From UHGV virus genome UHGV-0008253: 42,773 nucleotides of DNA; one strand, given 5' to 3'. A model generated the notes under the pieces. That model had not been told where the DNA came from. It made no database searches and worked only from the letters and a program-made list of their open reading frames with translations. Made by a program: the position numbers and the translations under genes. The stretch comes from a virus. Positions 136 through 35,481 of this stretch are shown here, piece after piece (position 1 is the first letter of the stretch; every line of letters starts with the position of its first letter).

Positions 136-150
136 TTACCTTAAAGGTAT
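136..150. promoter_or_regulatory. operator-like palindrome TTACCttaaaGGTAt (1 mismatch) upstream of int
   Basis: matches the TTACC-N5-GGTAA motif found at 12 other intergenic sites; flanked by inverted repeat gacggtat/ataccgtc. Confidence 0.4.
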
Positions 151-192
151 ACTCTCATACCGTCATGAAAATGGTTTCTATACGGGTGAATT

Positions 193-1449
193 GTGCTTAC
201 CGATACAAAATTAAAAAACCTCAAGCCGCAGGACAAACTGTACAAGGTCTCCGATCGTGACGGGCTGTATGTAGCTGTGCTTACGTCAGGCACGGTCTCG
301 TTTCGCTATGACTACCGTATCAACGGTCGCCGCGAAACACTGGTAATCGGGCAGTATGGGCGTGACGGTATCAGCCTGGCAGAAGCGCGAGAAGAACTGA
401 TTGCTGCAAAGAAGCTGCTTAAAGCAGGCCAGTCACCGGCTGCGGCTAAACGTGACGGTATCAAAAAGATTCGTGGTGCCGAGACGTTTGCGGTACATAC
501 CGACAGTTATATGAAACACGTCATCCTGGCTGACAGTACCCGCGCAATGAAACAGGCGGTGATCGACCGTGACATACTTCCGGTTCTTGGCAATAAAATG
601 ATGGCTGAAATTACCACATCGATGGTTCGTGATTTGTGTGACCGGATTGTCGAACGCGGTGGCCGGGCAACAGCAGTGCAGGCCAGGGAGATCATCAGTA
701 GCGTATACCGTCACGCCAATGACCGTGGTCATGGTTTGTTTAATCCTGCGGCTGACATTAAACCTTCGTCTATCGCCATATTTAAACCACGAGAGCGAAC
801 ACTGACACCAGAAGAAATTGGCCTATTCTTCCGCACGCTGGATGCCATTGGTGCTATGGGCACTATGAAAATGGCTTTAAAACTGGTGCTTATCACTATG
901 GTTCGTAAGGGCGAATTCACCAATGCAACGTGGGATGAAATAGATTTTAAAAAATGGACATGGACAATTCCTCCAGACCGCATGAAGGGAAGCCGGGCGC
1001 ACGTTATTTACCTGCCTAAACAGGCACAGGATATATTGGTCGGGTTGCAGATGTGCGCTGGTGGAAGTGAATATCTGGTTCCTGGTCGTTACAATTTCCG
1101 GAAGCCATTATCTAATGCCGCGCTGAACTCTCTGATCGACAGAACGGTGAAAATAATAAATGAAGATGGTGAGCATATTCAGGACTTCACTGTACATGAT
1201 ATGCGCCGTACAGCCAGTACGTTGTTGCATGAGGCTGGTTATCCTTCAGACTGGATTGAAAAGGCTCTGGCACATGAGCAGAAAGGTGTGCGCGCCGTAT
1301 ATAACAAAGCGGAATACGCCAGACAGCGCGCCTACATGTTGCAGCAGTGGGCCGATATGATTGATTCATGGATTGACGGGGAGCATACGGATCTGATTCC
1401 GTTCTCCCCGTCGACGTTTGAGAAGTGGATGGAAGACAGTAATAAATAA
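193..1449 (+). CDS. int: tyrosine integrase (P4-like, N-terminal DUF4102-type arm-binding domain), GTG start
   Basis: N-terminus MLTDTKLKNLKP...LYVAVLTSGTVSFRYDYRINGRRE typical of P4-family integrases; C-terminal HDMRRTAST and RAVYNKAEY catalytic-region motifs. Confidence 0.9.
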   Translation: MLTDTKLKNLKPQDKLYKVSDRDGLYVAVLTSGTVSFRYDYRINGRRETLVIGQYGRDGISLAEAREELIAAKKLLKAGQSPAAAKRDGIKKIRGAETFAVHTDSYMKHVILADSTRAMKQAVIDRDILPVLGNKMMAEITTSMVRDLCDRIVERGGRATAVQAREIISSVYRHANDRGHGLFNPAADIKPSSIAIFKPRERTLTPEEIGLFFRTLDAIGAMGTMKMALKLVLITMVRKGEFTNATWDEIDFKKWTWTIPPDRMKGSRAHVIYLPKQAQDILVGLQMCAGGSEYLVPGRYNFRKPLSNAALNSLIDRTVKIINEDGEHIQDFTVHDMRRTASTLLHEAGYPSDWIEKALAHEQKGVRAVYNKAEYARQRAYMLQQWADMIDSWIDGEHTDLIPFSPSTFEKWMEDSNK

Positions 1450-1451
1450 TT

Positions 1452-2111
1452 CTATCCTTCCTGGACTTTGGTAAGCGTCAGATTTCCGCAGAACACTGCG
1501 CCGGTGTCGATGTACATCTGGTTTGCATACACTAGTGGGTGATGTGCTGGCGTATGACCGAAGATGAACAAATCGGCACCGGTTATCTCCGAGACAATAC
1601 CGTCCTGCGCGTCGCTAACCCGCTCACGATTCCATATCACCATTTCTTCCGGTACTGGCTTATCGAATGCGTATTCGTTGTGGGGGTAGTCTGCGTGGCA
1701 GATGACGACCTTCTTATTGCCGGTAACCAGTTCGATAATCATCGGGAGGTTGGTAACCTTTGGCAGAAGGTATTTGAGTTGCACATCCTGCTCAGAATCA
1801 AGTTGGCGCCACCATCCACCGCCGTTTGACATCCAATGTCCGAAACTTCCGCCGTTGACCAGTGCATCCAGCATCATCTGCTCATGGTTGCCACGAACAG
1901 CTCGGAACCACGGCATAGTAATCAAATCCAGGCATTCGACGTTTTCAGCGCCGCGGTCAACAAGGTCACCAACGGAAATAAGCAAATCGCGCGCCGGGTC
2001 GAATGAAACTTTGTCGAGTTCGTTCATCAGCAGCGTGTAGCACCCATGCAGATCGCCGACGACGAAGATATTGCACCAGTCAGCGCCATTGATGCGTTGA
2101 TATAGGTTCAT
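1452..2111 (-). CDS. Ser/Thr protein phosphatase, lambda PPase / PrpA-PrpB family (metallophosphoesterase)
   Basis: from internal Met [24 protein letters not shown]...[14 protein letters not shown]...RGNHE; near-collinear with lambda phosphatase from memory; start overlaps stop of upstream gene (ATGA). Confidence 0.85.
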
Positions 2112-2758
2112 GCTGAACGCTCCCGCCCCTGGTTGTCTGTTGGTGACAGCGGAGCATTGCTGAATGCATTTGTTAATCTGGCAATATCCAACGCGTATCC
2201 AGGGTGTAGTTGCACTGCCGGGTCTTCGCACTGATTACCCCAAACATCGAAACCATGAGACGACTGGCGGGCGAACAGTTCAATGCGAGAAACATCGCCT
2301 AACAATTGCACAAGTTTTTCACGAACGACATCTGGCTTTCTTGAATGCTCAAGCCGCGGTGCGGTAAATGACTGAACGATCCCTGCATTAATGCGCGTAG
2401 GTAGTTTTCCCTTTACCGCAAACAGGCAATCTTCACTATTGGCGCGAGTCATGTGTCCCATACCCATAACCAGTTTATCTGGTTGTCGACTACCACATTT
2501 TATCCACGTGAAGCCCTTCATCGTCATCAGACGGAATCCCCAGGCTTCAACAACTTTTAGTGCTTCGAGTGGTTGTGTTGGCACCCACCACATGGCCAAC
2601 AGACAGTTTTCATCGGCCAAATCCCACACAGGAAGGCGGCAGATATCCAGCACACTCATAACCGGATATTTAAAACCGGCACCGCGATTACCATCTGCGG
2701 CTTTGTCCCGGTATACCCAGGGTGGATCTGCATAGATTAGTGTGTATTTCTTAGTCAT
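2108..2758 (-). CDS. MT-A70 family DNA N6-adenine methyltransferase (orphan)
   Basis: DPPW motif in [12 protein letters not shown] near N-terminus; likely ATG start at 2758 (MTKKY) with GGGGTGG SD, track start is upstream GTG at 2770. Confidence 0.8.
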
Positions 2759-3050
2759 AAACCACCCCACAACATCCTATGCCGCTATAGTCGCCACGGC
2801 GAAGGCCGTTACCTTTTGTGATACATTGGTCCCTGCGAACCGCGATCCTTGCACGCTCAACATCACCAGAAGCAACATCCATACACTGAAGCCAAAGGTG
2901 GGCGGCAATGCGGAACTGCCCTTTTTTCTCTCTTTCAATCGCGCGTTTTTCGATCTCTATCGCCGCAGGAGTAACGGCAACAACCTTTGAAGGGCTGCGC
3001 ATTGAAACCTTGTTCATGTGATATTTTTCAAGTCGGCTTAACTTTCTCAC
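2751..3050 (-). CDS. hypothetical protein
   Basis: ORF in operon context, tightly coupled to methyltransferase start; no recognisable motif. Confidence 0.4.
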   Translation of the reverse strand: MRKLSRLEKYHMNKVSMRSPSKVVAVTPAAIEIEKRAIEREKKGQFRIAAHLWLQCMDVASGDVERARIAVRRDQCITKGNGLRRGDYSGIGCCGVVYD

Positions 3051-3159
3051 TTAATCCAACCCTCTCTGAAAATTAATGCCAGCAGATAAAGCCATGCTGA
3101 AACAGAGGCCAGGAATAAGTACCATCCTGACCATTTGCTCCATTGCCTTAGCAGCACAC

Positions 3160-3408
3160 TCATGCCGCGTTGCTCACAGGACGATATACACGTTGCTGAA
3201 CAGGAGGTTTTTTACCCTGGAACTCTGCCGGGCTTGCTGCCTGACGTTCATCAAGCCAACGCTCAACTTCATCACGGTTCCATGCGCAGCGTTTGTCAGT
3301 GATATACCAGCGTTTAGGAAATTCCCCTGCGCGCTCCATACGGTCGATAGTGCTCCATGACAGTGGCACCACCGCCATGAGTTCCTTCTTACCTAATGCA
3401 CCTTTCAT
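3160..3408 (-). CDS. AlpA/Vis-like small HTH regulator (excisionase-type)
   Basis: MAVVPLSWSTIDRMERAGEFPKRWYITDKRCAWNRDEVERWL resembles AlpA-family proteins; two possible ATG starts (3408 or 3378). Confidence 0.65.
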   Translation of the reverse strand: MKGALGKKELMAVVPLSWSTIDRMERAGEFPKRWYITDKRCAWNRDEVERWLDERQAASPAEFQGKKPPVQQRVYRPVSNAA

Positions 3409-3457
3409 AAATACCTCTCTTGGTTGCAGTGCGGCGCGTGTGGCGCCGCGGTGGTGG

Positions 3458-4339
3458 TTACATAGATGTTTCGTTTAATTCTTCCCGACGAACGCTGTAA
3501 ACGTCGGTTGCTTTTGCCAGCAGTTCGTCATCATCTGAAAGTTTTTGTGCAATGTATTTGTAAGCCTTATCCAGTTCGGAGACAGTGCTGTAATTCATCG
3601 CTGCGCTGGTAAAGGCCATCAGCATTTCTTCTGGATCACGGCTATCCGCTTTACGCGTTTGCTCATCAGGCTTTTTCACTGGTTTAGCGTTGATCAGACT
3701 GTTCATTCCCGCAGCAGTAGTTGTTTGCGGAGTAATGTCTCGTTCAACGCGCGGTGCCGTTTCCTGTAATTCGTCAGGGGTGTAAACACCGAGAAGTACA
3801 TCAGGAGCGTGCAGGCGAGCCCATCGTTTCGTGCAAAGATAGGCAAGCTGCTGGCGAGGATCCTGTTCCCACAATGGAGAGTTACGCACTCCGGCTTGCG
3901 CCATACTGATGGTAAGCTCACGTGGTTCTGCTTCTCCTTTAAGAACTGCTGACACAGTTACCGTCAGATTCGGTGATTTATCTGTTTTGCCGTTAACATT
4001 CGACCAGTCACCGCTCCAGCGATAATTCAGGCGTGTCGCCAGCAGGCTTGACGAGGATACGACCGCGTTTACCAACTGTGCTTCGTAGCCTAACGTTCCG
4101 TTTACCACATGCGTTTTCTGCGCCACGGCGAAAGGGTTCATTCCCCACTGTGCCGCCTGCATGGTCACCGCCAGGCAATCGGCAGGTTTGCCTTCAAGAT
4201 GTTTCGGTACAGTCGCTTTGCTTTGTGACATCAACTCAGCGAAACGCACCAGTTGATTCATTCCCTCGGGGCTGAAGATTGCCGCAGCAGTGCCTACAGT
4301 TGCGCCTGGTTGTGATGTGATTGCGATATCATTGCTCAT
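3458..4339 (-). CDS. RecT/Red-beta family single-strand annealing protein
   Basis: WGMNPFAVAQKTHVVNGTLGYEAQ region resembles Bet/RecT core; adjacent to exonuclease as in recombination modules. Confidence 0.75.
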   Translation of the reverse strand: MSNDIAITSQPGATVGTAAAIFSPEGMNQLVRFAELMSQSKATVPKHLEGKPADCLAVTMQAAQWGMNPFAVAQKTHVVNGTLGYEAQLVNAVVSSSSLLATRLNYRWSGDWSNVNGKTDKSPNLTVTVSAVLKGEAEPRELTISMAQAGVRNSPLWEQDPRQQLAYLCTKRWARLHAPDVLLGVYTPDELQETAPRVERDITPQTTTAAGMNSLINAKPVKKPDEQTRKADSRDPEEMLMAFTSAAMNYSTVSELDKAYKYIAQKLSDDDELLAKATDVYSVRREELNETSM

Positions 4340-5453: not shown

Positions 5454-5455
5454 TA

Positions 5456-5627: not shown

Positions 5628-5642
5628 TTACCGTTGAGGTAA
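5628..5642. promoter_or_regulatory. operator palindrome TTACCgttgaGGTAA at PL-like promoter
   Basis: perfect TTACC-N5-GGTAA; directly downstream of candidate -10 (5643-5648) and -35 TTGACA (5665-5670) on minus strand. Confidence 0.6.
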
Positions 5643-5689
5643 TAATTATGCGTATATGGTTTGATGTCAATAGATATGAGTTAAAAAAA

Positions 5690-5704
5690 TTACCCGTTAG
5701 GTAA
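5690..5704. promoter_or_regulatory. operator palindrome TTACCcgttaGGTAA
   Basis: perfect TTACC-N5-GGTAA 20 bp upstream of the PL-like -35. Confidence 0.6.
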
Positions 5705-5761: not shown

Positions 5762-6346
5762 TTATTGTTTGTTTTTTTCGTTCTGGTTGATGACAAATTC
5801 AATGTAACTTTCGATCTTTGCTTTCTCGGTTTCGGGTAACAATGCGTAGCGCGAGCGATCATAGTTGATGGTCGCAGGGTCGTGCGGGTGAATCAGTAAT
5901 TCATAGCCGTGACGCCCGAATGCGGATGCAACATTCTCCAGGGTGGAAATGGAAACGCTGACCTCATTGTTTAACAGGCGGCTGATTGTCACCTGGGCGA
6001 CGCCGGATGCGCGGTGTAGTTTTCCCTGCGTTGAAAGGTCGCGGCTTTCGCTCATCCAGCGTTCCAGGTTGTGAGCCGCCAACTGACCAATGTCGCTAGG
6101 GCCGACAGGCTGAAAACCTTCCTGAGAAAGCGAGCGATCGATATCAAGCCAGTTACGGGGTTTATTGGCGGCAGCTTCAATTTTTCGCGCAACCTGGTCG
6201 CCGATAACCTTCTTGCCAAGAGCCCAGCGGTTTACCAGATTTGCCTGAGTTCCAAGTTTTTCAGCCATCCGCGTCTGAACACCATTGAATTCACGGTCGA
6301 TCAAGTCGTTGAGATTTTGCCTGCGGACGTCCTGGATACTTTTCAT
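5762..6346 (-). CDS. phage repressor, tandem HTH (XRE-type) DNA-binding protein without recognisable S24 autocleavage domain
   Basis: two HTH-like segments (QTRMAEKLGTQANLVNRWALG and ASGVAQVTISRLLNNE); divergent from cro-like gene with operators between. Confidence 0.7.
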   Translation of the reverse strand: MKSIQDVRRQNLNDLIDREFNGVQTRMAEKLGTQANLVNRWALGKKVIGDQVARKIEAAANKPRNWLDIDRSLSQEGFQPVGPSDIGQLAAHNLERWMSESRDLSTQGKLHRASGVAQVTISRLLNNEVSVSISTLENVASAFGRHGYELLIHPHDPATINYDRSRYALLPETEKAKIESYIEFVINQNEKNKQ

Positions 6347-6401: not shown

Positions 6402-6416
6402 TTACCCAACAGGTAA
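6402..6416. promoter_or_regulatory. operator palindrome TTACCcaacaGGTAA in repressor/cro intergenic region
   Basis: perfect TTACC-N5-GGTAA. Confidence 0.65.
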
Positions 6417-6418: not shown

Positions 6419-6433
6419 GCACCCCACAGGTAA
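6419..6433. promoter_or_regulatory. degenerate operator GCACCccacaGGTAA
   Basis: right half-site perfect, left half 2 mismatches; lies between two stronger sites. Confidence 0.35.
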
Positions 6434-6449
6434 CTATCCTTGATTTTTG

Positions 6450-6464
6450 TTACCTTATGGGTGA
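6450..6464. promoter_or_regulatory. operator TTACCttatgGGTGA overlapping PR-like promoter
   Basis: 1 mismatch; overlaps -35 TTGTTA (6447-6452), 17-bp spacer, -10 TATTAT (6470-6475) reading toward cro-like gene. Confidence 0.6.
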
Positions 6465-6500: not shown

Positions 6501-6731
6501 ATGAGCGATAACGGACATTTCGATTTCAAAAAGCACTGGCTTGCACTTACTCCGGATGAGCGTGAAGCCTTCGCACAGGAAGCCGGAACGACGAGTCACT
6601 ATATCCAGACTCACTTAACAGGTAAGCGCAAAATGCCAGGTAAGGTATTGATGAATGGGCTTTTTAAAGCCTGTAAAACAAGACAATGGCTGCGCTCAAA
6701 AGCAGAATTGGCATACTTCTTCTACTCATGA
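6501..6731 (+). CDS. Cro/CII-like small DNA-binding regulator (first rightward early gene)
   Basis: 76-aa protein divergent from repressor; TSHYIQTHLTGKRK region resembles small phage HTH regulators. Confidence 0.55.
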   Translation: MSDNGHFDFKKHWLALTPDEREAFAQEAGTTSHYIQTHLTGKRKMPGKVLMNGLFKACKTRQWLRSKAELAYFFYS

Positions 6732-6786: not shown

Positions 6787-6801
6787 GTACCTCAAAGGTA
6801 A
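6787..6801. promoter_or_regulatory. operator-like GTACCtcaaaGGTAA
   Basis: 1 mismatch to TTACC-N5-GGTAA, just after the tR1-like terminator. Confidence 0.45.
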
Positions 6802-6881
6802 TAAAAAACCAAATCTGGTTGATCTTTTTTTTGTGTCAGCACAAAATGACCGTAATCCCAATACTAATAACAGGGCTTACC

Positions 6882-8695: not shown

Positions 8696-8732
8696 TACCA
8701 GCGCGATAGCGCATTTTTTTACGTCTCGATAA

Positions 8733-8747
8733 TTACCTTAGAGGTAA
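8733..8747. promoter_or_regulatory. operator palindrome TTACCttagaGGTAA
   Basis: perfect TTACC-N5-GGTAA in P/next-gene intergenic region. Confidence 0.6.
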
Positions 8748-8794
8748 TAAAATATTCTAAAATCTATTGATTTCGTGTCTTATGTGGTTTTTAA

Positions 8795-8809
8795 TTACCT
8801 AAGGGGTAA
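8795..8809. promoter_or_regulatory. operator palindrome TTACCtaaggGGTAA overlapping RBS of 8813 gene
   Basis: perfect TTACC-N5-GGTAA ending 4 nt before the ATG. Confidence 0.6.
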
Positions 8810-8812: not shown

Positions 8813-9160
8813 ATGAGAAAACAGATGCAGGCTCTTGGTCGACTCAAAACAGGCCAGATGAACAAAACAGAATCTGCGTATTGCCAGCACCTTGAGCTGC
8901 GTAAACGTGCAGGAGAAATCGTCTGGTATCGATTTGAGGGTATCAAGCTGCGGTTAGCTGACAACACGTTCTATACGCCAGATTTTGCTGTGATGCTCGC
9001 CACCGGCGAGATGGAACTGCACGAAGTGAAAGGGGGATTCTGGACCGATGACGCCAGAGTGAAAACCAAAGTCGCCGCAGATCAATATCCGTTCCGAATC
9101 ATCGGGGTAACTGTTAAGCCAAAGAAAGCAGGTGGTGGCTGGAAAATCGAAGAGTTCTGA
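8813..9160 (+). CDS. DUF1064-type PD-(D/E)XK nuclease-like protein
   Basis: AGEIVWYRFEGIKLRL...YTPDFAV...ELHEVKGG pattern matches DUF1064 architecture (recall-based). Confidence 0.55.
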   Translation: MRKQMQALGRLKTGQMNKTESAYCQHLELRKRAGEIVWYRFEGIKLRLADNTFYTPDFAVMLATGEMELHEVKGGFWTDDARVKTKVAADQYPFRIIGVTVKPKKAGGGWKIEEF

Positions 9161-10873: not shown

Positions 10874-11979
10874 CCACTATAACCAAAGAGCGACTACTGA
10901 CAATCAAGCAGTGGCGCGAAACATACGGACCTGGTAGCAACGTTGTACTGCCAGCAGAAGAAGCGGAAGAACTGGCACGGATTGCGCTGGCATCGCTGGA
11001 AGCAGAGCCGGTGGCAAAGATTATAGCTCATTACCCATTAGGAGTTGACGTAGGCAAACAAAAGTTCGTACAGGCCATTGGAGAGCTTCCTGACTTTGGC
11101 GGATATCTATTTGCCGCCCCTCCAGCGCCGATAGTGCCGGAAGAAATGTATTGGCAGGATGCGCCAGTTGAAGGCAGCAGCAAAGCGGCTGCATACGCTA
11201 CAGGCTGGAACGCCTGCCGCGCTGCCATGCTTCATAGTGCCGAACCTGCAAGTAATCATGAAGAGTTGCCGCTTGATTATCTCCAAGGTCAAAAAGATGG
11301 TCTTGAATGGGCTGCGCAGCTTGCAGAAGCAAATCACCCACAAACTGGCGACTGGCTTTACGATGACCCGCTGGAGCTGGCTAAAGCTATCAGAAAAGGT
11401 CCTGACATGCCCGAATTCGATGGACCAACTCCGATAACGCCGGAGGCCATTGAAAACGCAATTGAATATATCCGCAGTATCGCTTTTCACATCGATGAAG
11501 ACGATTACCACGGCAAGCATATTGCGTATTTCATGCGACAAGCACTGGTCTGGCTGGAAGGGCATTCATGCAGCGACGACAGACAGGGTAAAGCCGAGAA
11601 TCAACCAGTACGCGGCAACCAGGCTGCCGAATCCAATCGCGGTAATGAGTGGACCGGCAATCCTGATATTGATAACGCCATCATCATGCTCGATCGCATA
11701 GATACGCTGGAAAGTTGCGATGATGACCGTATTGAGGCGGTTAAGACTGTTTTGCGTAGACTGGCTGGCAACTATCCGGTAACTCCGGATGGTTGGATAA
11801 GCTGTAGTGAGCGAATGCCCGCTCAAGATGATTGGATTTTAATTTATTCAAAGCACGGCGAGTATATGGCAGGACAGGTACAAGGGGAATACGTGGAGTT
11901 GAGCGACGGCACTTTATCGTGGTTAGGGAACGCCTTGTACTGGATGCCTCTACCGGAACCGCCGCAGGAGGTTAATTGA
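10870..11979 (+). CDS. hypothetical protein with C-terminal DUF551-like region
   Basis: C-terminal WISCSERMP...WMPLPEPP resembles DUF551 (recall-based). Confidence 0.5.
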   Translation: MTTITKERLLTIKQWRETYGPGSNVVLPAEEAEELARIALASLEAEPVAKIIAHYPLGVDVGKQKFVQAIGELPDFGGYLFAAPPAPIVPEEMYWQDAPVEGSSKAAAYATGWNACRAAMLHSAEPASNHEELPLDYLQGQKDGLEWAAQLAEANHPQTGDWLYDDPLELAKAIRKGPDMPEFDGPTPITPEAIENAIEYIRSIAFHIDEDDYHGKHIAYFMRQALVWLEGHSCSDDRQGKAENQPVRGNQAAESNRGNEWTGNPDIDNAIIMLDRIDTLESCDDDRIEAVKTVLRRLAGNYPVTPDGWISCSERMPAQDDWILIYSKHGEYMAGQVQGEYVELSDGTLSWLGNALYWMPLPEPPQEVN

Positions 11980-12876: not shown

Positions 12877-12917
12877 GAGTAGATTATGCATGATGAATTT
12901 GATGGGGTTTGAATACT

Positions 12918-12943
12918 GCCGCCAACTATGGCGGCTTTATTTT
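12918..12943 (+). terminator. rho-independent terminator immediately upstream of terS
   Basis: hairpin gccgcc-aactat-ggcggc followed by tttatttt. Confidence 0.7.
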
Positions 12944-12986
12944 GCATGGTACTATTACCACAACGGTAACTATTACCACGGTGGTT

Positions 12987-13583
12987 ATGATGCCTGCTGA
13001 ACCTAAAGCCTATAAACGCAAATCAACGCAATTTAAGCCACTAACAGCAATGCAGGAGGCTTATTGCCAGTCATACATCAAAACGCCTGAAAACCAGACT
13101 CAGGCAGCGATTAACGCAGGATTCTCCCCAAATACAGCGGCAGTTAAAGCCAGTGTCATGATGCGCGATGAACGCATTCAAAAACGGATTGCCGAGTTGA
13201 TGGAGGAGCGCAACAAACGAATGCGCGTCAGTGCTGATTACGTTCTCATGCGCTTGGTGGAGATCGACCAGATGGACGTGATCGACATCCTCAACGACGA
13301 TGGTAGCCTTAAGCCAATCCGAGAGTGGCCGAAAATCTGGCGCACTACGCTTAGCGGCTTTGATCTGTCATCGACCATCATGAACATGAACGAGGATTCG
13401 ATAGAGACAATCCTCAAAAAAATTAAATGGCCTGACAAGGTGAAGAACCTCGAACTGATTGGTAAGCACGTCGACGTCAACGCATTCAAAGAACGCCTGG
13501 ATGTTAATGTGAATGTGACAATTGCTGATCGCATAGCGGCAGCCAGGAAGAGACTGAAAGAACGTCAGGATGGCAATCAGTGA
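12987..13583 (+). CDS. terminase small subunit
   Basis: position upstream of and overlapping terL; start at ATG 12987 (MMPAEPK) after terminator. Confidence 0.65.
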   Translation: MMPAEPKAYKRKSTQFKPLTAMQEAYCQSYIKTPENQTQAAINAGFSPNTAAVKASVMMRDERIQKRIAELMEERNKRMRVSADYVLMRLVEIDQMDVIDILNDDGSLKPIREWPKIWRTTLSGFDLSSTIMNMNEDSIETILKKIKWPDKVKNLELIGKHVDVNAFKERLDVNVNVTIADRIAAARKRLKERQDGNQ

Positions 13584-15145: not shown

Positions 15146-15517
15146 TTATTGCTCGCTTAACTTCTGCTTCAGCAAGTAACCTTCAAGCATCCAGATTTTG
15201 TTTACAGCATTCTGTCGGGCAATCTTCCGACCAATTTCTGCATCAAAGTTTTCCGGGCTTGCACAGGCGCTCTCTCCGGTGACGGTGAAGCCGTTGCGCA
15301 GCACCAGGACGCAGAACGTCAGCAGAGAAAGTGATTCGTGCGGCTGGTAGTTTACCTCTCCGCCAGTATGTTTCGCTTTTATGGCTACGCCAAAGGCACC
15401 ATCTTCTGCTGTGAAATATGCCTCCTGAGCAATAATGCTCTCGATATGGTCTGGCGTAACGCGCGGCGCGGCTAAACCTTTAGCCTGAATTTCAGATTCA
15501 ATGTCTTTTTCACTCAT
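15146..15517 (-). CDS. hypothetical protein (reverse-strand insert, co-oriented with tRNA-Arg)
   Basis: 123-aa ORF; no family recognised. Confidence 0.5.
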   Translation of the reverse strand: MSEKDIESEIQAKGLAAPRVTPDHIESIIAQEAYFTAEDGAFGVAIKAKHTGGEVNYQPHESLSLLTFCVLVLRNGFTVTGESACASPENFDAEIGRKIARQNAVNKIWMLEGYLLKQKLSEQ

Positions 15518-15720: not shown

Positions 15721-15797
15721 TGGCGTGGCATGCAGGATTCGAACCTGCGACCAACCGCTTAGAAGGCGGTTGCTCTGTCCGACTGAGCTAATGCCAC
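15721..15797 (-). tRNA. tRNA-Arg (anticodon UCU)
   Basis: cloverleaf read directly: acceptor GTGGCAT/ATGCCAC, D-stem GCTC/GAGC, anticodon stem ACCGC/GCGGT with loop CUUCUAA, T-arm GCAGG-TTCGAAT-CCTGC, discriminator G, CCA. Confidence 0.85.
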
Positions 15798-16119: not shown

Positions 16120-16134
16120 TTACCTGAAAGGTAA
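16120..16134. promoter_or_regulatory. operator palindrome TTACCtgaaaGGTAA upstream of head gene block
   Basis: perfect TTACC-N5-GGTAA. Confidence 0.6.
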
Positions 16135-16224
16135 TAATTAACGCGTTAAATGTCAACCTTCTACGATAAATAAATCATATGTGGTTAAATTGGTAATAAT
16201 TTAATTGCGTACGGAGTCATTGAT

Positions 16225-19130: not shown

Positions 19131-20117
19131 ATGGCTGTTAAAGGCTTAACTGCGCTAACGCTGGCTGACTGGGGTAAGCGCGTCGATAAAGATGGGAAAG
19201 TCGATAAGATTATCGAGCTTCTCGGTCAAACTAACCCGATCCTTCAGGATATGCCTTTTGTCGAAGGGAACCTTCCTACCGGACACAAAACCACCATTCG
19301 TTCTGGTTTACCTTCAGCTACCTGGCGTTTGTTGAACTATGGTGTACAACCAAGCAAATCAACCACAGTGCAGGTCACCGATTCCATTGGTATGTTGGAA
19401 ACCTATGCTGAAGTCGATAAGTCACTGGCTGATCTGAACGGCAATACCGCCGAATTCCGCCTGTCTGAAGACCGCGCATTTATTGAAGCGATGAATCAGC
19501 AGATGGCGCAGACGCTGTTTTATGGTGATTCCAGCGTTAACCCTCAGCAGTTTATGGGACTGTCCTCCCGCTATTCCAGCCTGTCTGCGGGTAATGCTCA
19601 GAACATCATTGATGCTGGTGGCACGGGTACAGATAACACCTCAATCTGGTTAGTGGTGTGGGGCGAAAACACCGTGCATGGCATCTTCCCGAAAGGGCAG
19701 AAGGCTGGCATCCAGATGGAAGATAAAGGCCAGGTGACACTGGAAGATGCTAATGGCGGCAAGTACGAAGGCTATCGTACCCATTACAAATGGGATAACG
19801 GACTTTCTCTGCGTGACTGGCGTTATGTTGTTCGCATTGCAAACATCGATGTCAGCAATCTTTCAGAACCTTCCTCTGCCGCAAATATTGCGAAGTTGAT
19901 GGTTAAAGCACTGCATCGCATTCCAAATCGTGGCATGGGTCGCCCGGTGTTCTACATGAACCGCACTGTAGGCCAGGCTCTTGATCTGCAATCTCTGGAG
20001 AAAACATCTCTGGCGATCAGCGTAAAAGAGACAGAAGGCGAGTGGTGGACTTCATTCCGTGGTGTACCAATCCGTGAAACTGATGCGCTTCTGGAAACAG
20101 AAGCCCGCGTGGTGTAA
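19131..20117 (+). CDS. major capsid protein
   Basis: 328 aa, strong SD, position after scaffold, followed by stable hairpin. Confidence 0.7.
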   Translation: MAVKGLTALTLADWGKRVDKDGKVDKIIELLGQTNPILQDMPFVEGNLPTGHKTTIRSGLPSATWRLLNYGVQPSKSTTVQVTDSIGMLETYAEVDKSLADLNGNTAEFRLSEDRAFIEAMNQQMAQTLFYGDSSVNPQQFMGLSSRYSSLSAGNAQNIIDAGGTGTDNTSIWLVVWGENTVHGIFPKGQKAGIQMEDKGQVTLEDANGGKYEGYRTHYKWDNGLSLRDWRYVVRIANIDVSNLSEPSSAANIAKLMVKALHRIPNRGMGRPVFYMNRTVGQALDLQSLEKTSLAISVKETEGEWWTSFRGVPIRETDALLETEARVV

Positions 20118-29728: not shown

Positions 29729-32203
29729 ATGAGACAGGAATGTATACAAGCGGTTCAGCAGGCGGCGCAGCGCATGTTAACGGCGCGAGAAATACAGAAC
29801 ATTGAAGACCGCATTTATCGAAATATGCGCTCCATTGCTCGTGATGACCCTATGTCGTGGCGACAACTTTCCGAATCAGAGCGGCTATATCGAGCAGCAC
29901 AATTGGCATCTGAAGAATTACAGCGAGAAGCGGCATTAAAGAAACGTCGTGTGGCCCTCACTATAGCCGCACGTCAGAGATTGGATAAATTTATCAATAG
30001 CTATCAAGGGGCTGATGGGAAACTTGGCGCTCTTAACCGTACTATTGCTTTTAATGCAGACGGTAAATCGAATTTCCTCTCTGTTGAATCCAGAACAAAA
30101 GCCACTCGTGATTATGCATTGAGTCAATTGCAGGAGGCATTTGAAGCAGTTGATCCTCGCTTTTTTGGCCTGTTTGAAGATGAAGCTGGCGTGCGTGACC
30201 TGGTATATGAAATGCGAGGGCAAAATACTGGCAATGCTAAAGCAAGAAAAGGTGCTAAGGCGTGGAGAGAAGTGACAGAGCTACTGCGCCGCCGGTTTAA
30301 TGATGCTGGTGGGGACATTGGCTATCTCGAAAACTGGGGGCTCCCTCAACATCATTCTATGGAAAAGGTTGGGGCGGTATCAAAGGATAAGTGGGTTAGC
30401 GATGTTATAGGTAAGCTGGATCGCAAATATTATACCCGAGTCGATGGACAACTGATGAACGATGCCGAGTTGTCTGCATTTCTTGGAGAGGCTTATAACA
30501 CGATCGCTACTGGTGGGCTGAATAAGCTTACTGATACCGGAATGCGAATTTCCGGCGCACGTGCTAACCGGGGTAATGCATCACGACAGATACATTTCAA
30601 AGATGCAGATTCCTATCTGCAATATCAGCAACTTTATGGCGATCGCTCTCTATGGGAAATCATGGTCGGTCACCTGGAAGGTATCAGTAAAGATATTGCA
30701 CTGGTGGAAACATATGGCCCAAACCCCGATCATGTTTTCCGCTCTCTTCTTGATCAGGTGAAGGCAGAAACGGCAACAGCTAACCCGAGTAAAACCGGTA
30801 AAGTCGAGCGGCTGGCGAACAACACAGAGAATCTGTACAACTTTATTTCCGGAAAGACACAGCCTGTAGCGAATCCGCACATCGCGCGATGGTCTGACAA
30901 TATCCGCAACTGGCTGGTTGCCAGCAGACTCGGATCCGCGTTGCTGTCATCGTTCTCTGATCTTGGAACCATGTATCTGTCTGCGAAGGTTACCAACCTT
31001 CCAATGAACCAGTTATTCCGCAACCAGCTTGAAGCTATGGACCCAACGAACCGTACAGAACTTGCGCGGGCGCGCCGCGCTGGTCTGGCGATGGAATCTC
31101 TACTTGGCAGCGTTAACCGCTGGGCGATGGATAATATGGGGCCGTCTGTGTCTCGTTGGGCTGCAACGGTGGTAATGCGTGCCAGTGGGCTTACAGCATG
31201 GTCAGATGCGCACAAGCGCGCCTATGGCGTAACCATGATGGGAAGCCTGGGAGAAGTAGTGTCACGGACACCAGACCTTCGTAGCCTCGATGATTCTGAT
31301 TTTCGTATCCTGAAAAGCAAAGGGATTACTGACACAGACTGGAGCGTATGGAAGCTGGCGCAACAGGAGGACTGGGGGAACGGTAATAATACGATGCTGA
31401 CACCGGAAAGCATTATGCGTATCCCTGATTCAGCAGTTAAACATCTTGGTGAGCCTGAACGCGTGAAATTTGAGGCAATGCGTAAACTGCTCGGTGCCGT
31501 AACTGAAGAAGTTGATATGGCTGTTATTACACCGGGTGCACGTGAGCAACTGATAACCGGTTCTGGTATTCAGCGTGGAACATGGAAAGGTGAATTAACG
31601 AGAAGTGTTTTCCTGTTTAAATCGTTCCCTATCTCGGTGGTTATGCGTCACTGGTCACGCGCTATGGGTATGCCGTCGGCTGGTGGGCGTGCGGCATATA
31701 TTGCGACGTTTATTGCCAGTACGACCATTCTTGGCGCTTTGTCGCAGCAACTTAACGACCTTGCGTCTGGTCGTAATCCTCGCGAGATGACAGGAGAAGA
31801 TGCTGCTAAATTTTGGCTTGGTGCTCTACTGAAAGGTGGTGGTCTTGGCCTTTACGGTGACTTTTTATTGTCAGATCACACTAGGTACGGAAGCGGCGCG
31901 CTGGCGTCGATGCTTGGCCCGGTAGCTGGTCTGGTTGATGACGTAGTGAAGATTGCTCAGGGCATACCGTTAAATGCTGTGGAAGGGAAGAATGAGCAGA
32001 CTGGTGGTGATCTGGTTAAGCTGGGGAAAGGTCTGATGCCAGGTGCGAATCTCTGGTACTTAAAGGCGGCTCTCGATCACATGATCTTTAACCAGATGCA
32101 GGAGTATTTTTCACCAGGTTATTTGCGTAAAATGGAGCAACGTTCGAAGAAAGAGTTTAACCAGACATACTGGTGGCGACCACAGGATGTCACTCCGCAA
32201 TAA
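29729..32203 (+). CDS. large internal virion/ejection protein
   Basis: 824 aa, last gene before accessory island. Confidence 0.5.
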   Translation: MRQECIQAVQQAAQRMLTAREIQNIEDRIYRNMRSIARDDPMSWRQLSESERLYRAAQLASEELQREAALKKRRVALTIAARQRLDKFINSYQGADGKLGALNRTIAFNADGKSNFLSVESRTKATRDYALSQLQEAFEAVDPRFFGLFEDEAGVRDLVYEMRGQNTGNAKARKGAKAWREVTELLRRRFNDAGGDIGYLENWGLPQHHSMEKVGAVSKDKWVSDVIGKLDRKYYTRVDGQLMNDAELSAFLGEAYNTIATGGLNKLTDTGMRISGARANRGNASRQIHFKDADSYLQYQQLYGDRSLWEIMVGHLEGISKDIALVETYGPNPDHVFRSLLDQVKAETATANPSKTGKVERLANNTENLYNFISGKTQPVANPHIARWSDNIRNWLVASRLGSALLSSFSDLGTMYLSAKVTNLPMNQLFRNQLEAMDPTNRTELARARRAGLAMESLLGSVNRWAMDNMGPSVSRWAATVVMRASGLTAWSDAHKRAYGVTMMGSLGEVVSRTPDLRSLDDSDFRILKSKGITDTDWSVWKLAQQEDWGNGNNTMLTPESIMRIPDSAVKHLGEPERVKFEAMRKLLGAVTEEVDMAVITPGAREQLITGSGIQRGTWKGELTRSVFLFKSFPISVVMRHWSRAMGMPSAGGRAAYIATFIASTTILGALSQQLNDLASGRNPREMTGEDAAKFWLGALLKGGGLGLYGDFLLSDHTRYGSGALASMLGPVAGLVDDVVKIAQGIPLNAVEGKNEQTGGDLVKLGKGLMPGANLWYLKAALDHMIFNQMQEYFSPGYLRKMEQRSKKEFNQTYWWRPQDVTPQ

Positions 32204-32212
32204 GGAAGTGTT

Positions 32213-32386
32213 GTGTTTTTAATTATTTTGAGTGTGATAATTTCTGGTGGATTGTTATTTATTGACCGCTACAAATATTTTCTTAACCCTCAGACTCAAG
32301 CTATTTGCTGGTTCATCTTTGTTGTGCAGGGAGTAGTTCTTGTTGCAAGCCTTATTGAGGGGAGGCCTCTTATTTTTACTGGGTAA
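32213..32386 (+). CDS. possible 57-aa hydrophobic protein (GTG start)
   Basis: AAGGAAG SD 4 nt before GTG; two hydrophobic stretches; below ORF-track cutoff. Confidence 0.3.
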   Translation: MFLIILSVIISGGLLFIDRYKYFLNPQTQAICWFIFVVQGVVLVASLIEGRPLIFTG

Positions 32387-32399
32387 ATTAGGTGACTAC

Positions 32400-32696
32400 A
32401 TGCAAGCTATAGGATTCATTGTTTATATCGTCGTTGGTCTTTTTCAGTTGGCAGCAATTATGGCTGGGCTTGAATCATGGTGGGGATTGCACTGGATAAT
32501 TGCAGCCCCCATTGCTTTCATCGTGAGCTATATTCCATTTGTTGGAGCGATTGTTGGTATGGTTGGCGCTGTGGATGTATGGCGGTGGGAGTGGTGGCAG
32601 GCTGGCCTTCTCTTCTTTGGTGGGATCATCTTTGCTATTGTCTGCGGTGGAATGTCATCATTTTTCGAATGGCTATCATTCAGAAAAGGGACGTGA
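32400..32696 (+). CDS. small membrane protein (3 predicted TM helices)
   Basis: MQAIGFIVYIVVGLFQLAAIMAGL... hydrophobic throughout; own terminator downstream. Confidence 0.55.
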   Translation: MQAIGFIVYIVVGLFQLAAIMAGLESWWGLHWIIAAPIAFIVSYIPFVGAIVGMVGAVDVWRWEWWQAGLLFFGGIIFAIVCGGMSSFFEWLSFRKGT

Positions 32697-32704
32697 CATG
32701 TCAC
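32693..32704. repeat. perfect 12-bp palindrome GTGACATGTCAC (copy 2)
   Basis: identical to 12865-12876; overlaps TGA stop and directly abuts terminator hairpin. Confidence 0.6.
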
Positions 32705-32729
32705 AGGCCGCTTTCGCGGCCTTGTTTTT
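32705..32729 (+). terminator. rho-independent terminator
   Basis: hairpin aggccgc-tttc-gcggcct followed by tgttttta. Confidence 0.7.
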
Positions 32730-32889
32730 AACGAATGCCACCGCCGCCTGGGCGGGAATCCGCAGAACGCCCACCGCAGCGTGAGCCGTCAGCAGCAGTG
32801 TCGCTGTCGTGCTGACAACGACCGGCAAAGGCCTGAGTTGAAGCTACCAGAGACAACAAAACGAACAGTGCAGCAAATGCTTTTTTCAT
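32728..32889 (-). CDS. small secreted peptide (signal peptide MKKAFAALFVLLSLVASTQAFA + about 31-aa Gly/Arg/Cys-containing mature part)
   Basis: textbook signal peptide with AxA site; candidate TTGACG-N16-TATAGA promoter with very short leader. Confidence 0.45.
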   Translation of the reverse strand: MKKAFAALFVLLSLVASTQAFAGRCQHDSDTAADGSRCGGRSADSRPGGGGIR

Positions 32890-32961
32890 TGTGACATTTC
32901 CATCTATAAGCCACCTCAATGTGGCGTCAATGAGTGTAGCACTGACTTTTGTTTCGTCCAC

Positions 32962-32990
32962 AAAAAAGCCCGCAGCGCGGGCTATTCTTT
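32962..32990. terminator. bidirectional rho-independent terminator
   Basis: hairpin gcccgc-agc-gcgggc flanked by A6 upstream and tattctttttt downstream; overlaps stop of 288-aa gene. Confidence 0.7.
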
Positions 32991-33848
32991 TTTGCTATTT
33001 CTTTGATATATATTTCTTCCATTTTTGGTAACACGAATAACGTGCCCCCTGGATTCTACTTTGTTATTTGTTGCTTTATATACTTCAAAATCAAACCATG
33101 ATATATAACTTATTTCGTCAATAGACACCATGATCTCAAGTCCTAGCACTTTCTTTCTGCTAATTCCTCTTATTGCTGCAGTCCGCTTGACCTGTATTTC
33201 TCCTGGATAAGCATTAGTGAATGTGACAGATAAGTTTTCTTTGTTCCTGTATCCTGACATTAAAGGAACAAAAGATATGTGCTGATGCGGACCCTGATTT
33301 TCCGTTGGTTCACCAGAACCATTTATTATTCCAACATACACTTTGTTTGATGATAAAGTAATCAACATTGGTCGTTTAGGATCCGATTCAATAGCATCAA
33401 GCAATAGTAAGTCTAAAGAACCTTGCGAGTAAGTTTTTCGCAGTACTCTGGCCTTCATTGCCTCTGTTTTTTGCTCGTAAATATCACGTTTATAAAAACA
33501 ACCAAGAAGAAAATCTTTCACCCACACAACAGACACATAACACAAAGAGAAGCAAATGGATGTGGCTGAGAGAAGAAGCAGCCACATGTAAATTCTATCT
33601 GTTTCTGGTTTTGATGTTACATTAAAAGTTTCCACCATATCGTGAACTAGGTGAAAATCAGGCCATTTATATTTTATAGCGGCTGCAATTATTACTGATG
33701 CAACAAGGCAATATGTACCTAATGCAGCTACTTTCATATAAAGAAGCTGGCCTTCATGTCGGTATAAACGGAAATAATGATACTGGTTAGCGGTTATCAT
33801 AATATAACCACTAACCAGAATGGGGATAATTAGAAGAGCTAACAACAC
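32982..33848 (-). CDS. membrane-anchored protein of unknown function (3 N-terminal TM helices + about 170-aa soluble domain), low-GC moron
   Basis: hydrophobic segments at residues about 1-20, 39-58, 88-110; markedly AT-rich codon usage versus neighbours; coupled to upstream 69-aa gene. Confidence 0.6.
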   Translation of the reverse strand: MLLALLIIPILVSGYIMITANQYHYFRLYRHEGQLLYMKVAALGTYCLVASVIIAAAIKYKWPDFHLVHDMVETFNVTSKPETDRIYMWLLLLSATSICFSLCYVSVVWVKDFLLGCFYKRDIYEQKTEAMKARVLRKTYSQGSLDLLLLDAIESDPKRPMLITLSSNKVYVGIINGSGEPTENQGPHQHISFVPLMSGYRNKENLSVTFTNAYPGEIQVKRTAAIRGISRKKVLGLEIMVSIDEISYISWFDFEVYKATNNKVESRGHVIRVTKNGRNIYQRNSKKE

Positions 33849-34057
33849 TATTTCCTTACAGTGGCAAGATCCTGTTTAACAATTGCAGCAGCGAGACGAC
33901 GCATCTCCTTAACCTCAGGAAGCTCAGAAATTTGCTGTGATGAGATATATACTCCACCACGCTTGTTAACCTGCGCTGACGCCGGAACTTCTGCATTTTT
34001 TGCCTGAGGGCTGGGTGCATTATCCCTCGTTTTTGTACGAGCGAACCAAAATCCCAT
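33848..34057 (-). CDS. small protein of unknown function, first gene of two-gene cassette
   Basis: ATG at 34057 preceded by strong SD GAGGAGGAG; stop overlaps start of 288-aa gene. Confidence 0.55.
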   Translation of the reverse strand: MGFWFARTKTRDNAPSPQAKNAEVPASAQVNKRGGVYISSQQISELPEVKEMRRLAAAIVKQDLATVRK

Positions 34058-34083
34058 ATCTCCTCCTCATGTAAACCCATGGT

Positions 34084-34098
34084 TTACCTTTAAGGTAA
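34084..34098. promoter_or_regulatory. operator palindrome TTACCtttaaGGTAA at promoter of 69-aa/288-aa cassette
   Basis: perfect TTACC-N5-GGTAA 27 bp upstream of start codon. Confidence 0.6.
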
Positions 34099-34164
34099 TC
34101 TTACGTGAATCTACATCACACCGCAAATGATTATGTCAGAAGCACATCCCTGTGCCGCCGCCCG

Positions 34165-34815
34165 TCAGAAGAACCCTGCCTTGTCGTTGATGTACTCCGC
34201 GTGGGTCTGGATATCACGCAGGCATTTGCTCACACCGACGATGTAGCAGAACATGGTGGTCAGCTCCGCCGCCGCGCCCGATACGTCGTGCCCGTCGTCC
34301 TGTAACTGGTTCAGCAGATTCATCAGCAGTGAGTTCTCCGTCAGGCCGAGAACACCAGACGGCGAATGAATCAGGCTACGGTAGCCGGGCTTCAGTGGGG
34401 CACTGTATTCTTTTTTGTCTTCCAGCTTGATCGCCTCCATAATGGCGGGCATGAAGCCTGACAAGACCTTCTCCACTTTTGTTTCTTGTTGTCTTAAACG
34501 TTTCTCGCATTCAATGAAGTAGCGTCGTACCTGACGACCTTTTTCGTTACGCTCGACCATCGCCAGCTCTTTGGCTGTATCGAGGGTGAGGTGGTAGTCT
34601 TTTGCAGGACGGCCTCTGCCTATTTTTTCCCGAACTTGGGAAATAATCATAAAGTCTTGATTTTCAACGAAACCATATTCAGAAATTCGTTCGACAATCC
34701 ACGAAGCAAATCGCTTACCCACATCGAGGAAAGTGTGTAAATCACGGGCATTAACGAGAAGAGCGGTTTCGTTGGATATAGTGCCGTTGAATACGGGGAT
34801 GAGTTGAGCGTTCAT
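34165..34815 (-). CDS. antirepressor (AntA/Bro-N-like N-terminal domain + C-terminal domain shared with 85-aa protein)
   Basis: N-terminus LIPVFNGTISNETALLVNARDLHTFLDVGKRFASWIVE resembles AntA-type antirepressors; C-terminus about 40 percent identical to 35133-35390 product. Confidence 0.65.
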   Translation of the reverse strand: MNAQLIPVFNGTISNETALLVNARDLHTFLDVGKRFASWIVERISEYGFVENQDFMIISQVREKIGRGRPAKDYHLTLDTAKELAMVERNEKGRQVRRYFIECEKRLRQQETKVEKVLSGFMPAIMEAIKLEDKKEYSAPLKPGYRSLIHSPSGVLGLTENSLLMNLLNQLQDDGHDVSGAAAELTTMFCYIVGVSKCLRDIQTHAEYINDKAGFF

Positions 34816-34973
34816 TATGGCGTCTCCACTTAGCGAATTACATCACCACCGCTGAGACCAATCAGATGGTGGTGAACTGAACGGAGTTGGTCTTACCGGC
34901 CTAAGTGGTACCGGCGTCCTTTCGGACCCCCATTCAGCCCACCATAATTCTGGCATGACTGTGCTATACGCAT

Positions 34974-35095
34974 AAAAAAACCACGTCTGGCGTGGTATGC
35001 GCCACTTAGTAATCCGGGAGACCAATCCCGGCACTGGATTTTGCCAGTGCCCGATTACTATGGCACAAGAGGAGTGCGATGTAAATTTACCTCAA
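34974..35095 (-). ncRNA. candidate small RNA / structured ant leader ending in intrinsic terminator
   Basis: candidate promoter -35 TTGAAA (35124-35129), -10 TTATAT (35102-35107), operator over +1; three stem-loops (ggcactgg/ccagtgcc, ccggga/tcccgg, ccacg/cgtgg) then U7. Confidence 0.4.
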
Positions 35096-35101
35096 AGGTA
35101 A
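35087..35101. promoter_or_regulatory. operator palindrome TTACCtcaaaGGTAA at candidate ant/sRNA promoter
   Basis: perfect TTACC-N5-GGTAA abutting candidate -10. Confidence 0.6.
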
Positions 35102-35132
35102 ATATAAGCACTCCACTTGGTAATTTCAAATC

Positions 35133-35390
35133 TTATCTGGTTTGTTTTCGTAATTGTTCGGCACAATAGTCGAGATGTGTTTGCAGATCCTGCATAGACA
35201 TCTGTGAGCTGGTGACGTAGTTAATCAGTGCAGTCAGTTCGGCAAGTGGGCCATCGACATTAAATCCATCCTTATCGAGATCCCGGAGTAATTTCATCAA
35301 GTGCGATCCCTCCACCAGTGACCTGACGCCTCCCGGCGTGTGAATCCTTTCGGTAAATCCGTCTTCCAGTGGATAGTGATACTGCTGCAT
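35133..35390 (-). CDS. small antirepressor-like protein (stand-alone homolog of Ant C-terminal domain), LexA-box controlled
   Basis: 85 aa from ATG 35390 with GGAGAAG SD; IHTPGGV...LMKLL...DG..V.G.LAELT...DLQTH aligns to Ant C-terminus; LexA box 19 nt upstream. Confidence 0.6.
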   Translation of the reverse strand: MQQYHYPLEDGFTERIHTPGGVRSLVEGSHLMKLLRDLDKDGFNVDGPLAELTALINYVTSSQMSMQDLQTHLDYCAEQLRKQTR

Positions 35391-35409
35391 CTTATCTTCT
35401 CCATGCAAT

Positions 35410-35429
35410 AACTGTATATTTATACAGTA
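35410..35429. promoter_or_regulatory. LexA box (SOS operator) AACTGTATATTTATACAGTA
   Basis: CTGT-N8-ACAG with AT-rich spacer, 18/20 match to consensus TACTGTATATATATACAGTA. Confidence 0.75.
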
Positions 35430-35466
35430 GCAAATAATTTGTTTGCTATCCAGCACGTTTTGCAAA

Positions 35467-35481
35467 TTACCTGAAAGGTAA
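35467..35481. promoter_or_regulatory. operator palindrome TTACCtgaaaGGTAA between LexA-box gene and tailspike
   Basis: perfect TTACC-N5-GGTAA. Confidence 0.6.

Follow-up and report, generated by a model that had tools for sequence, protein, structure and literature searches.

Dispersed TTACC-N5-GGTAA sites in a phiV10-like Uetakevirus prophage as probable operators of its repressor Rep

The prophage, its dispersed palindrome and the annotation of its relatives

UHGV virus genome UHGV-0008253, a stretch of 42,773 nucleotides (nt) that we refer to as the window, contains a 15-base-pair (bp) palindrome, TTACC-N5-GGTAA, at many dispersed intergenic positions, and we have analysed the distribution of these sites, their relation to promoters and the protein that probably binds them. 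By megablast against phage records, positions 1 to ~40936 of the window are a temperate podophage of the phiV10/ε15 type, genus Uetakevirus, with 96-98% identity to phiV10, vB_EcoP_PAS61, phiv142-3 and vB_EcoP_ZX5 across most of the prophage length. The genes on which the description leans most are the following:

193-1449: integrase gene int, at the left end of the prophage
5762..6346, minus strand: Rep, prophage repressor of 194 amino acids (aa), the putative binder of the motif
6501..6731, plus strand: Cro-like small helix-turn-helix (HTH) protein of 76 aa, a possible second binder of some sites
35133..35390, minus strand: Ant, antirepressor of the SPC32H type, 85 aa, 88% identical to SPC32H Ant, which has been defined experimentally

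A sequence-only reading of the window had listed nine perfect copies of the palindrome, three with one mismatch (136, 6450, 6787) and a degenerate one (6419), and had proposed an exhaustive scan of both strands with a shuffled control as a check. In this exact scan all the listed copies proved correct, and one perfect copy (12955) and one copy with a single mismatch (12973) that had been overlooked were added. The ten perfect copies, starting at 5628, 5690, 6402, 8733, 8795, 12955, 16120, 34084, 35087 and 35467, compare with 0.02 expected from dinucleotide shuffles, and 0 of 100 shuffled sequences reached ten. Allowing one mismatch gave 14 sites where 0.85 are expected, the extra ones being 136, 6450, 6787 and 12973. 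With two mismatches the matches rose to 41 (11.9 expected), that is ~27 against ~11 once the 14 good sites are subtracted; other than 6419, these two-mismatch matches are almost all coding and close to background. The degenerate site 6419 is considered real because its counterpart is perfect in ε15, SPC32H and BUCT711. In an unbiased count of all palindromes made of five bases, a gap of 0-8 and their reverse complement, TTACC with gap 5 was the commonest in the window. The fifteen sites are:

136..150: TTACCTTAAAGGTAT, one mismatch, ahead of int by ~45 bp; perhaps a weak operator
5628..5642: promoter-proximal O_L site, covering -10/+1 of the leftward early promoter P_L; ortholog of ε15 repressor site 32554-32570
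5690..5704: upstream O_L site, its centre 62 bp from that of 5628; ortholog of ε15 repressor site 32616-32632
6402..6416: O_R site nearest rep, perfect
6419..6433: degenerate middle site of O_R (GCACC-CCACA-GGTAA, two mismatches), at a spacing of 17 bp from 6402
6450..6464: O_R site on the side of the cro-like gene, one mismatch, between the -35 and -10 of the rightward promoter P_R
6787..6801: operator with one mismatch (GTACC...), its centre ~60 bp before the transcription start of the replication operon
8733..8747: upstream operator of the post-replication pair, at the -62 position; ortholog of ε15 repressor site 35906-35922
8795..8809: promoter-proximal operator of the post-replication pair, abutting the -10
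12955..12969: first terS operator, perfect; ortholog of ε15 repressor site 12-27
12973..12987: second terS operator, with one mismatch; it is spaced from the first by 18 bp and runs into the ribosome-binding site and start codon of terS
16120..16134: operator upstream of the gp3/portal head-gene block; ortholog of ε15 repressor site 2931-2947
34084..34098: operator at the head of the leftward accessory unit 33848-34057 / 32982-33848
35087..35101: operator at the head of the leftward isrK - C4 RNA - AntA antirepressor module
35467..35481: operator in the divergent ant/tailspike control region; ortholog of ε15 repressor site 19895-19911

All operator copies are non-coding. Even with mechanically maximal open reading frames (ORFs), by which 91.5% of the window counts as coding, 11 of the 15 sites lie outside ORFs, and the remaining four (8795, 12955, 12973 and 35467) fall in artefactual ORF extensions. 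The terS ORF, if begun at the TTG at 12909, reads across a terminator at 12918-12935; its true start is at ~12987, as in ε15, SPC32H and Tyrion, and the sites 12955 and 12973 lie between the terminator and this start. Site 8795 is 4 bp ahead of the ATG of a DUF1064 gene at 8813, and 35467 is upstream both of the Ant start at 35390 and of the LexA box of ant. The intergenic or promoter placement noticed earlier for all the copies holds once these extensions are discounted, and a motif equally common in coding regions or in shuffled sequence, the outcome named beforehand as speaking against an operator, was not what we found. The phiV10 record (DQ126339.2, 41-130) places the terS start upstream of the rho-independent terminator and of both operators, ~78 nt too early.

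The same sites are found in the annotation of a relative. The ε15 GenBank record AY150271.2 has seven features labelled "protein_bind, repressor, lysogeny", all of them (A)TTACC-N5-GGTAAT, located before terS, before gp3, between gp19(ant) and the tailspike gene, in the P_L region (three) and after the replication genes. When the regulatory regions are aligned, these features are orthologous to the window sites 12955, 16120, 35467, 5628/5690 and 8733. No operators are annotated in the phiV10 record. The ε15 genome paper of Kropinski et al. (2007) is said to give the consensus ATTACCWDWWNGGTAAT; the operator consensus string had no match in a full-text literature search. The operators are thus already known: ε15 has the same sites in its annotation, and for SPC32H the working of Rep and Ant has been solved structurally.

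We compared seven genomes, namely the window, phiV10, ε15, SPC32H, Tyrion, BUCT554 and Klebsiella phage BUCT711. In all seven, TTACC with gap 5 is the top 5+5 palindrome, with 8-11 perfect copies each. The 65 perfect sites give the extended consensus wATTACC-ttWaa-GGTAATw; of 130 half-site readings, 124 have A or T as the central base. The conserved layout is:

before terS: two copies, spaced by 18 bp (by 20 bp in BUCT554)
before gp3: one site
ant/tailspike region: one site
before the lysis cassette (relatives): a single copy, perfect in ε15 and otherwise with one mismatch
before int: a copy with one mismatch, ...GGTAT in every genome
P_L: two copies at a spacing of 62 bp
between rep and the cro-like gene: a group of three, with spacings of 17 bp and 30-31 bp
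after the cro terminator: one weak copy
after the replication genes: two copies, again at a spacing of 62 bp

Thirteen of the 14 operator pairs keep this spacing of 62 bp, and only P_L of BUCT711 departs from it, with 63 bp. The site before int keeps the identical GGTAT mismatch in 7/7 genomes; the ε15 record marks this region for integrase and RNase III, not for the repressor, and it is possibly a weak operator. The ε15 record and this conservation together support the earlier proposal of one regulator's operator, present at the immunity switch and at many other units. With Rep only ~42% identical, the half-site is nevertheless the same in members of the genus from Salmonella, Escherichia, Enterobacter and Klebsiella.

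The variable centre of the palindrome behaves differently from the half-sites. In the phiV10 group the N5 of the O_L/O_R sites 5628, 5690 and 6402 is G+C-richer (GTTGA, CGTTA, CAACA), and in the ε15 group (32479-33358) it reads ATTTT, TTTTG and ATAAA. The N5 of the late-unit operators is alike in both groups. The O_L/O_R difference may be the basis of immunity specificity despite identical half-sites.

Operators at promoters, the induction module and the late units

Promoter elements were read from alignments of the orthologous control regions in the seven genomes. P_L, on the minus strand, has a -35 TTGACA (5670 to 5665) within the invariant TGTCAATAG, a spacer of 17 nt and a -10 AATTAT (5647 to 5642), the final T of which is also the first T of the operator 5628-5642. 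The post-replication promoter is a mirror image of P_L, with -35 TTGATT (8767-8772), 17 nt and -10 TTTAAT (8790-8795), ending on operator 8795. A promoter scanner had proposed TCGATA-16-TAAAAT (8726-8753) for this region, which was rejected as the seven-genome alignment favours TTGATT-17-TTTAAT (8767-8795). Upstream of terS an extended -10, TGgTACTAT (12947-12955), terminates on the first base of operator 12955. The accessory unit at 34084 has a -10-like TAAGAT that ends on its operator, and so does the TTGAAA-17-TATATT (35129 to 35101) of the unit at 35087. P_R is built in another way, with an invariant -35 TTGATT (6440-6445) directly ahead of operator 6450, which occupies the spacer between -35 and -10. 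The replication operon has a conserved -35 TTGATC (6819-6824) and a -10 CAAAAT (6842-6847), with only a half-site at +1.

Over all genomes, 31 of 100 sites had a -10-like hexamer whose last base is also the first of the operator, together with a -35 or an extended TG; the corresponding share of control positions, which were not matched for intergenic base composition, was 2.2%. The geometry at the five promoters with this register fits repression by occlusion of the transcription start. Furthermore, the constant partner at 62 bp, about six helical turns away, fits cooperative binding or binding by a bridging tetramer. Possibly new are the 62-bp "-62/+1" pairs, the -10/operator register, the operators of the accessory modules and the motif CATATRTGGTT described below. 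This promoter-level architecture is unannotated in the ε15, phiV10 and SPC32H records and may be undescribed so far.

The right part of the prophage holds the following elements connected with induction:

34165-34815, minus strand: antirepressor gene of the AntA/AntB family, with isrK and C4 RNA directly upstream
34865-34949, minus strand: C4 antisense RNA (Rfam, 61.2 bits)
34974-35050, minus strand: isrK small RNA (Rfam, 67.7 bits)
35412..35427: near-consensus LexA box CTGTATATTTATACAG, between the ant start (35390) and operator 35467

The core of the LexA box, CTGTAT...ACA, is kept in 7/7 genomes. A review (PMC7380047) attributes to SPC32H a LexA-controlled Ant that inactivates the repressor. 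Operator 35467 abuts the putative -35 of the divergent ant promoter, with its centre near -44. The isrK-C4-antA module is a second antirepressor system resembling P1 immI and is headed by the putative Rep operator 35087. We also observed a mismatch in divergence between presumed partners that was unexpected, as Ant is 88% identical to that of SPC32H and the C-terminal domain of Rep ~38%. It may be asked, from this, whether the antirepressor of one Uetakevirus could induce another.

A second dispersed motif, CATATRTGGTT, was found in the late regions, with three perfect copies where ~0.04 are expected (an estimate that assumes uniform composition):

16176-16186, plus strand: before the head block
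35511-35521, plus strand: before the tailspike gene
38941-38951, plus strand: before the lysis cassette

These copies are kept in relatives, weaker copies exist at 5651 and 8779, and GGTAATA follows 5 nt after the motif in two of the three perfect copies. The motif may belong to late promoters or be bound by a putative late regulator. Around the head-block operator, a conserved TGTCAA (16151-16156) is a possible -35 of a leftward promoter towards the tRNA-Arg gene, and a 17-bp spacer would plausibly put its -10, TACCTT, inside operator 16120. We also considered, and rejected, a partner site at +1 for the single late-unit operators, at a distance of 62 bp: a half-site fits at 16120, but the tailspike equivalent is 50 bp away, so that the half-site downstream of 16120 is taken as coincidence.

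The sequence-only reading had placed one copy in front of every accessory transcription unit and of the head-gene block. This stands for the head block and for two accessory modules; since the lysis cassette has no operator, "every unit" is too strong, and the units 15146-15517 (minus)/tRNA-Arg and 32213-32700 have no operator of their own. In all the relatives examined that have a separate lysis control region, an operator lies ~32 bp upstream of a conserved CCATATRTGGTTT. In window 38700-39012 the DNA upstream of CCATATRTGGTTT has been replaced and this lysis operator lost; no oac or serotype-conversion gene was found in this segment.

Among the remaining features, the tRNA-Arg gene (anticodon TCT; 15721-15797, minus strand) is located between the terminase and head blocks, as in SPC32H, and both proteins of the unit 33848-34057 / 32982-33848 are of unknown function. 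The prophage ends at an attR core ATTGAGTGGGAGTGATT (40920-40936), one mismatch away from the core published for attP/attB, which is located at the 3' end of guaA, and the bases beyond this core are taken to be host DNA. A terminator hairpin at 40960-40987, just outside the attR core, is similar to a hairpin at 47-70 at the left end.

Rep, the Cro-like protein and the rival readings

The earlier reading held that the binder could not be told from the sequence. It is largely inferable as Rep, from the full-length homology of this protein to SPC32H Rep and from an outgroup phage, Pseudomonas phage PseuP_224. Rep matches SPC32H Rep (PDB 5D50) over its full length (E = 4e-42) and also the structure of the C-terminal domain, 5D4Z, and it is 100% identical to the repressors of phiV10 and vB_EcoP_ZX5. 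Its N-terminal domain is 53% identical to those of ε15 and SPC32H and the C-terminal domain 38-42% (42% overall), with an N-terminal NLVNRW that is invariant in the genus. The Pfam matches of Rep are of HTH type only (HTH_3/YdaS-type), and in the same search no Peptidase S24 domain was found in it. According to secondary descriptions (PMC9638917; PMC9986798), SPC32H Rep is a tetramer that binds palindromic DNA, with paired DNA-binding domains contributed by different dimers, and that is split by tetrameric Ant. For vB_EcoP_ZX5, overexpression of the repressor abolished free phage and lowered holin and endolysin mRNA by 99.97-99.99% (PMC9782041), a result that is functional support for Rep and silent on direct binding.

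PseuP_224, a siphovirus of the lambda type, encodes a Q antiterminator, and the homology of its cI to Rep is confined to the N-terminal domain (39% identity over residues 4-68, E = 1e-10). Copies of TTACC-N4-GGTAA flank this cI on either side, at 10906, 10932 (one mismatch), 11768 and 11807, and the rest of the genome has none. The Cro-like protein has no homologue in PseuP_224 (best E = 0.15). The TTACC half-site therefore tracks the Rep-type HTH, and the genome-wide dispersal of the sites is a feature of Uetakevirus. Moraxella phage Mcat9 was also tried as an outgroup and set aside, having just degenerate TTACC-like sequences beside a repressor-like gene.

We therefore consider it highly probable, judging from homology and comparative sequence data, that the TTACC-N5-GGTAA sites are operators of the main repressor Rep, by which most lytic units would be shut directly. 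Rep would bind through its N-terminal HTH domain, as a tetramer if SPC32H Rep is a guide, and would occupy the two O_L and three O_R sites of the immunity switch, as well as the promoters of the replication operon, the post-replication genes, terS/terL, the head block, ant/tailspike and two accessory modules. No antiterminator of N or Q type turned up in the window, although no specific search for one was made; with many short terminator-bounded units, one repressor would lock each unit directly. At five promoters the operator, beginning on the last base of the -10 and covering the transcription start, would exclude RNA polymerase; at P_R it would occupy the stretch between -35 and -10. The two sites spaced by 62 bp at P_L, and likewise those at the post-replication promoter, would be held by a single tetramer or by a pair of cooperating dimers. 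As Rep is without an S24 peptidase domain, induction would not proceed by its cleavage. DNA damage would lead to the cleavage of LexA and its loss from the ant box, Ant would be made and dismantle the Rep tetramer, and all operators would be freed together. The sequences themselves show the motif, how enriched and conserved it is, its position outside genes and over promoters, and the protein homologies; the physical binding of Rep, the bridging of the 62-bp pairs by a tetramer and repression at the late-gene sites are what we infer from these data.

Several points weigh against this reading of the sites. The assignment to Rep draws on GenBank annotation, homology and secondary descriptions. 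The Cro-like protein, 76-84% identical within the genus and with an invariant AGTTSHYIQxHLT, is better conserved than Rep. The half-site, the NLVNRW of Rep and the HTH of the Cro-like protein are all invariant, which makes operator/recognition-helix covariation uninformative; in particular, because the Cro-like HTH is equally invariant, covariation within the genus cannot separate the two proteins. At the head block (16120) and tailspike (35467), the best conserved promoter-like block is 30-42 bp downstream of the operator, which is off any recognisable core promoter, so that simple occlusion is no more than a possibility there. The operator 35467 could repress or activate ant, and its position is compatible with activation. 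Finally, no operator was found in the window at the lysis cassette (39012), leaving the control incomplete.

The high conservation of the Cro-like protein, its invariant HTH and its membership of PHROG 35, "transcriptional repressor" (E = 5.6e-13), suggest a different binder for the dispersed sites. This protein would then act mainly on them in the lytic phase, by lowering the expression of early and accessory units or raising that of late units. Since Cro and CI of lambdoid phages use the same operators, co-binding at O_R is likely; the Cro-like protein may share some sites with Rep. As the main binder it is improbable, given that PseuP_224 has the half-sites beside a Rep-type cI and no Cro-like homologue, that the ε15 record credits the sites to the repressor and that SPC32H Rep is reported (PMC9638917) to bind palindromes. 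The sites also border exchangeable modules, the window-specific modules at 34084 and 35087 each carry their own copy, and the lysis copy was lost precisely where the upstream DNA was replaced. This would be expected if the 15-17-mers were mainly junctions at module boundaries that promote recombination and mosaicism, with regulation incidental, a reading that we think very unlikely: a 15-bp stretch whose centre varies is not long enough for homologous exchange to be efficient, and palindromy, the fixed 62-bp phasing and the exact -10 register are expected instead of a protein-binding operator. There is hardly any chance, in our estimate, that the motif belongs to a host factor or a late phage factor such as a late activator, with the immunity-region copies being secondary. 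Such a factor would suit the head-block and tailspike sites, which are upstream of the likely promoter and not on it, and the ε15 record puts predicted sites of integration host factor (IHF) beside two operators. Nevertheless, the sites are most dense and best conserved at O_L and O_R, on either side of rep, five promoters have the site over -10/+1, which is a repressing position, the half-site follows the Rep-type HTH into another phage lineage and host genus, and no candidate late factor of matching conservation was found.

Returning to Rep as the binder, a wider picture can be drawn, which we hold only tentatively and would not expect to be right in all its parts. Rep would be a genome-wide lock replacing antitermination. 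Its tetramer would clamp the early pairs, with one operator on the transcription start and one at -62. The head, tailspike and lysis units would pair a single upstream Rep operator with CATATRTGGTT, read by a putative late regulator, and accessory modules would join the lysogenic programme by bringing their own operator.

Comparison with known systems

By all the sequence features compared, the set of sites in the window is to be equated with the putative Rep operator set of ε15 and SPC32H, every defining feature that we tested having been found. It shares with these phages the 17-bp palindrome ATTACC-N5-GGTAAT, the positions at terS, gp3, ant/tailspike, P_L, the post-replication genes and rep/cro, a homologous Rep, an 88%-identical Ant and the LexA box before ant. 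It differs from ε15 in having two O_L sites (three in ε15) and a degenerate middle O_R, in the extra operators at the accessory modules 34084 and 35087 (isrK-C4-antA) and in the loss of the lysis-cassette operator. As the sites are already annotated in ε15 and Rep and Ant are structurally solved, no new question is opened by the set as such. For annotation it means that the E. coli prophages of the phiV10 type, including the O157 typing phages and vB_EcoP_ZX5, share the putative repressor-operator set of ε15/SPC32H, and the half-site shared across the genus raises a question of cross-immunity and cross-induction between co-resident prophages. It would also be a clear case of a temperate phage in which one repressor directly controls many independent promoters; with one repressor on all units, a single LexA-controlled antirepressor could release the whole genome together.

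Phage P1 likewise has one primary repressor acting on many scattered operators and relies on protein antirepressors, not on cleavage (PMC8546580). Its C1 recognizes 22 dispersed operators, which are asymmetric 17-mers, ATTGCTCTAATAAATTT, and its Ant is controlled by the C4 RNA (PMC8546580). The C4 RNA and ant module of the window, with an operator of the primary repressor at its head, resembles P1 immI (c4-icd-ant; PMC8546580). Unlike those of P1, the window sites are symmetric palindromes of another sequence and number ~15. No relationship between P1 C1 and the window Rep turned up, though no direct comparison was made, and the late genes of P1 are controlled indirectly via Lpa. In mycobacteriophage L5 repressor sites are also spread beyond the immunity switch. 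However, the 20-30 stoperators of gp71 found across that genome are asymmetric, oriented with transcription, mostly off promoters and block elongation (PMC6550527), whereas the window sites are palindromic, intergenic and in register with -10/-35 elements.

As in lambda, the repressor and cro-like genes of the window are divergent and enclose three operators, more operators are found at the leftward early promoter, and the palindromic sites are of a kind read by an HTH. The window differs from lambda in that Rep is without an S24 autocleavage domain, no antitermination cascade was seen, although no specific search for one was made, the operators are not confined to O_L and O_R but late and accessory units carry their own, and the operator pairs are 62 bp apart, not adjacent. 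PseuP_224, lambda-like and with the Rep-type N-terminal domain in its cI, has its sites at O_L and O_R only.

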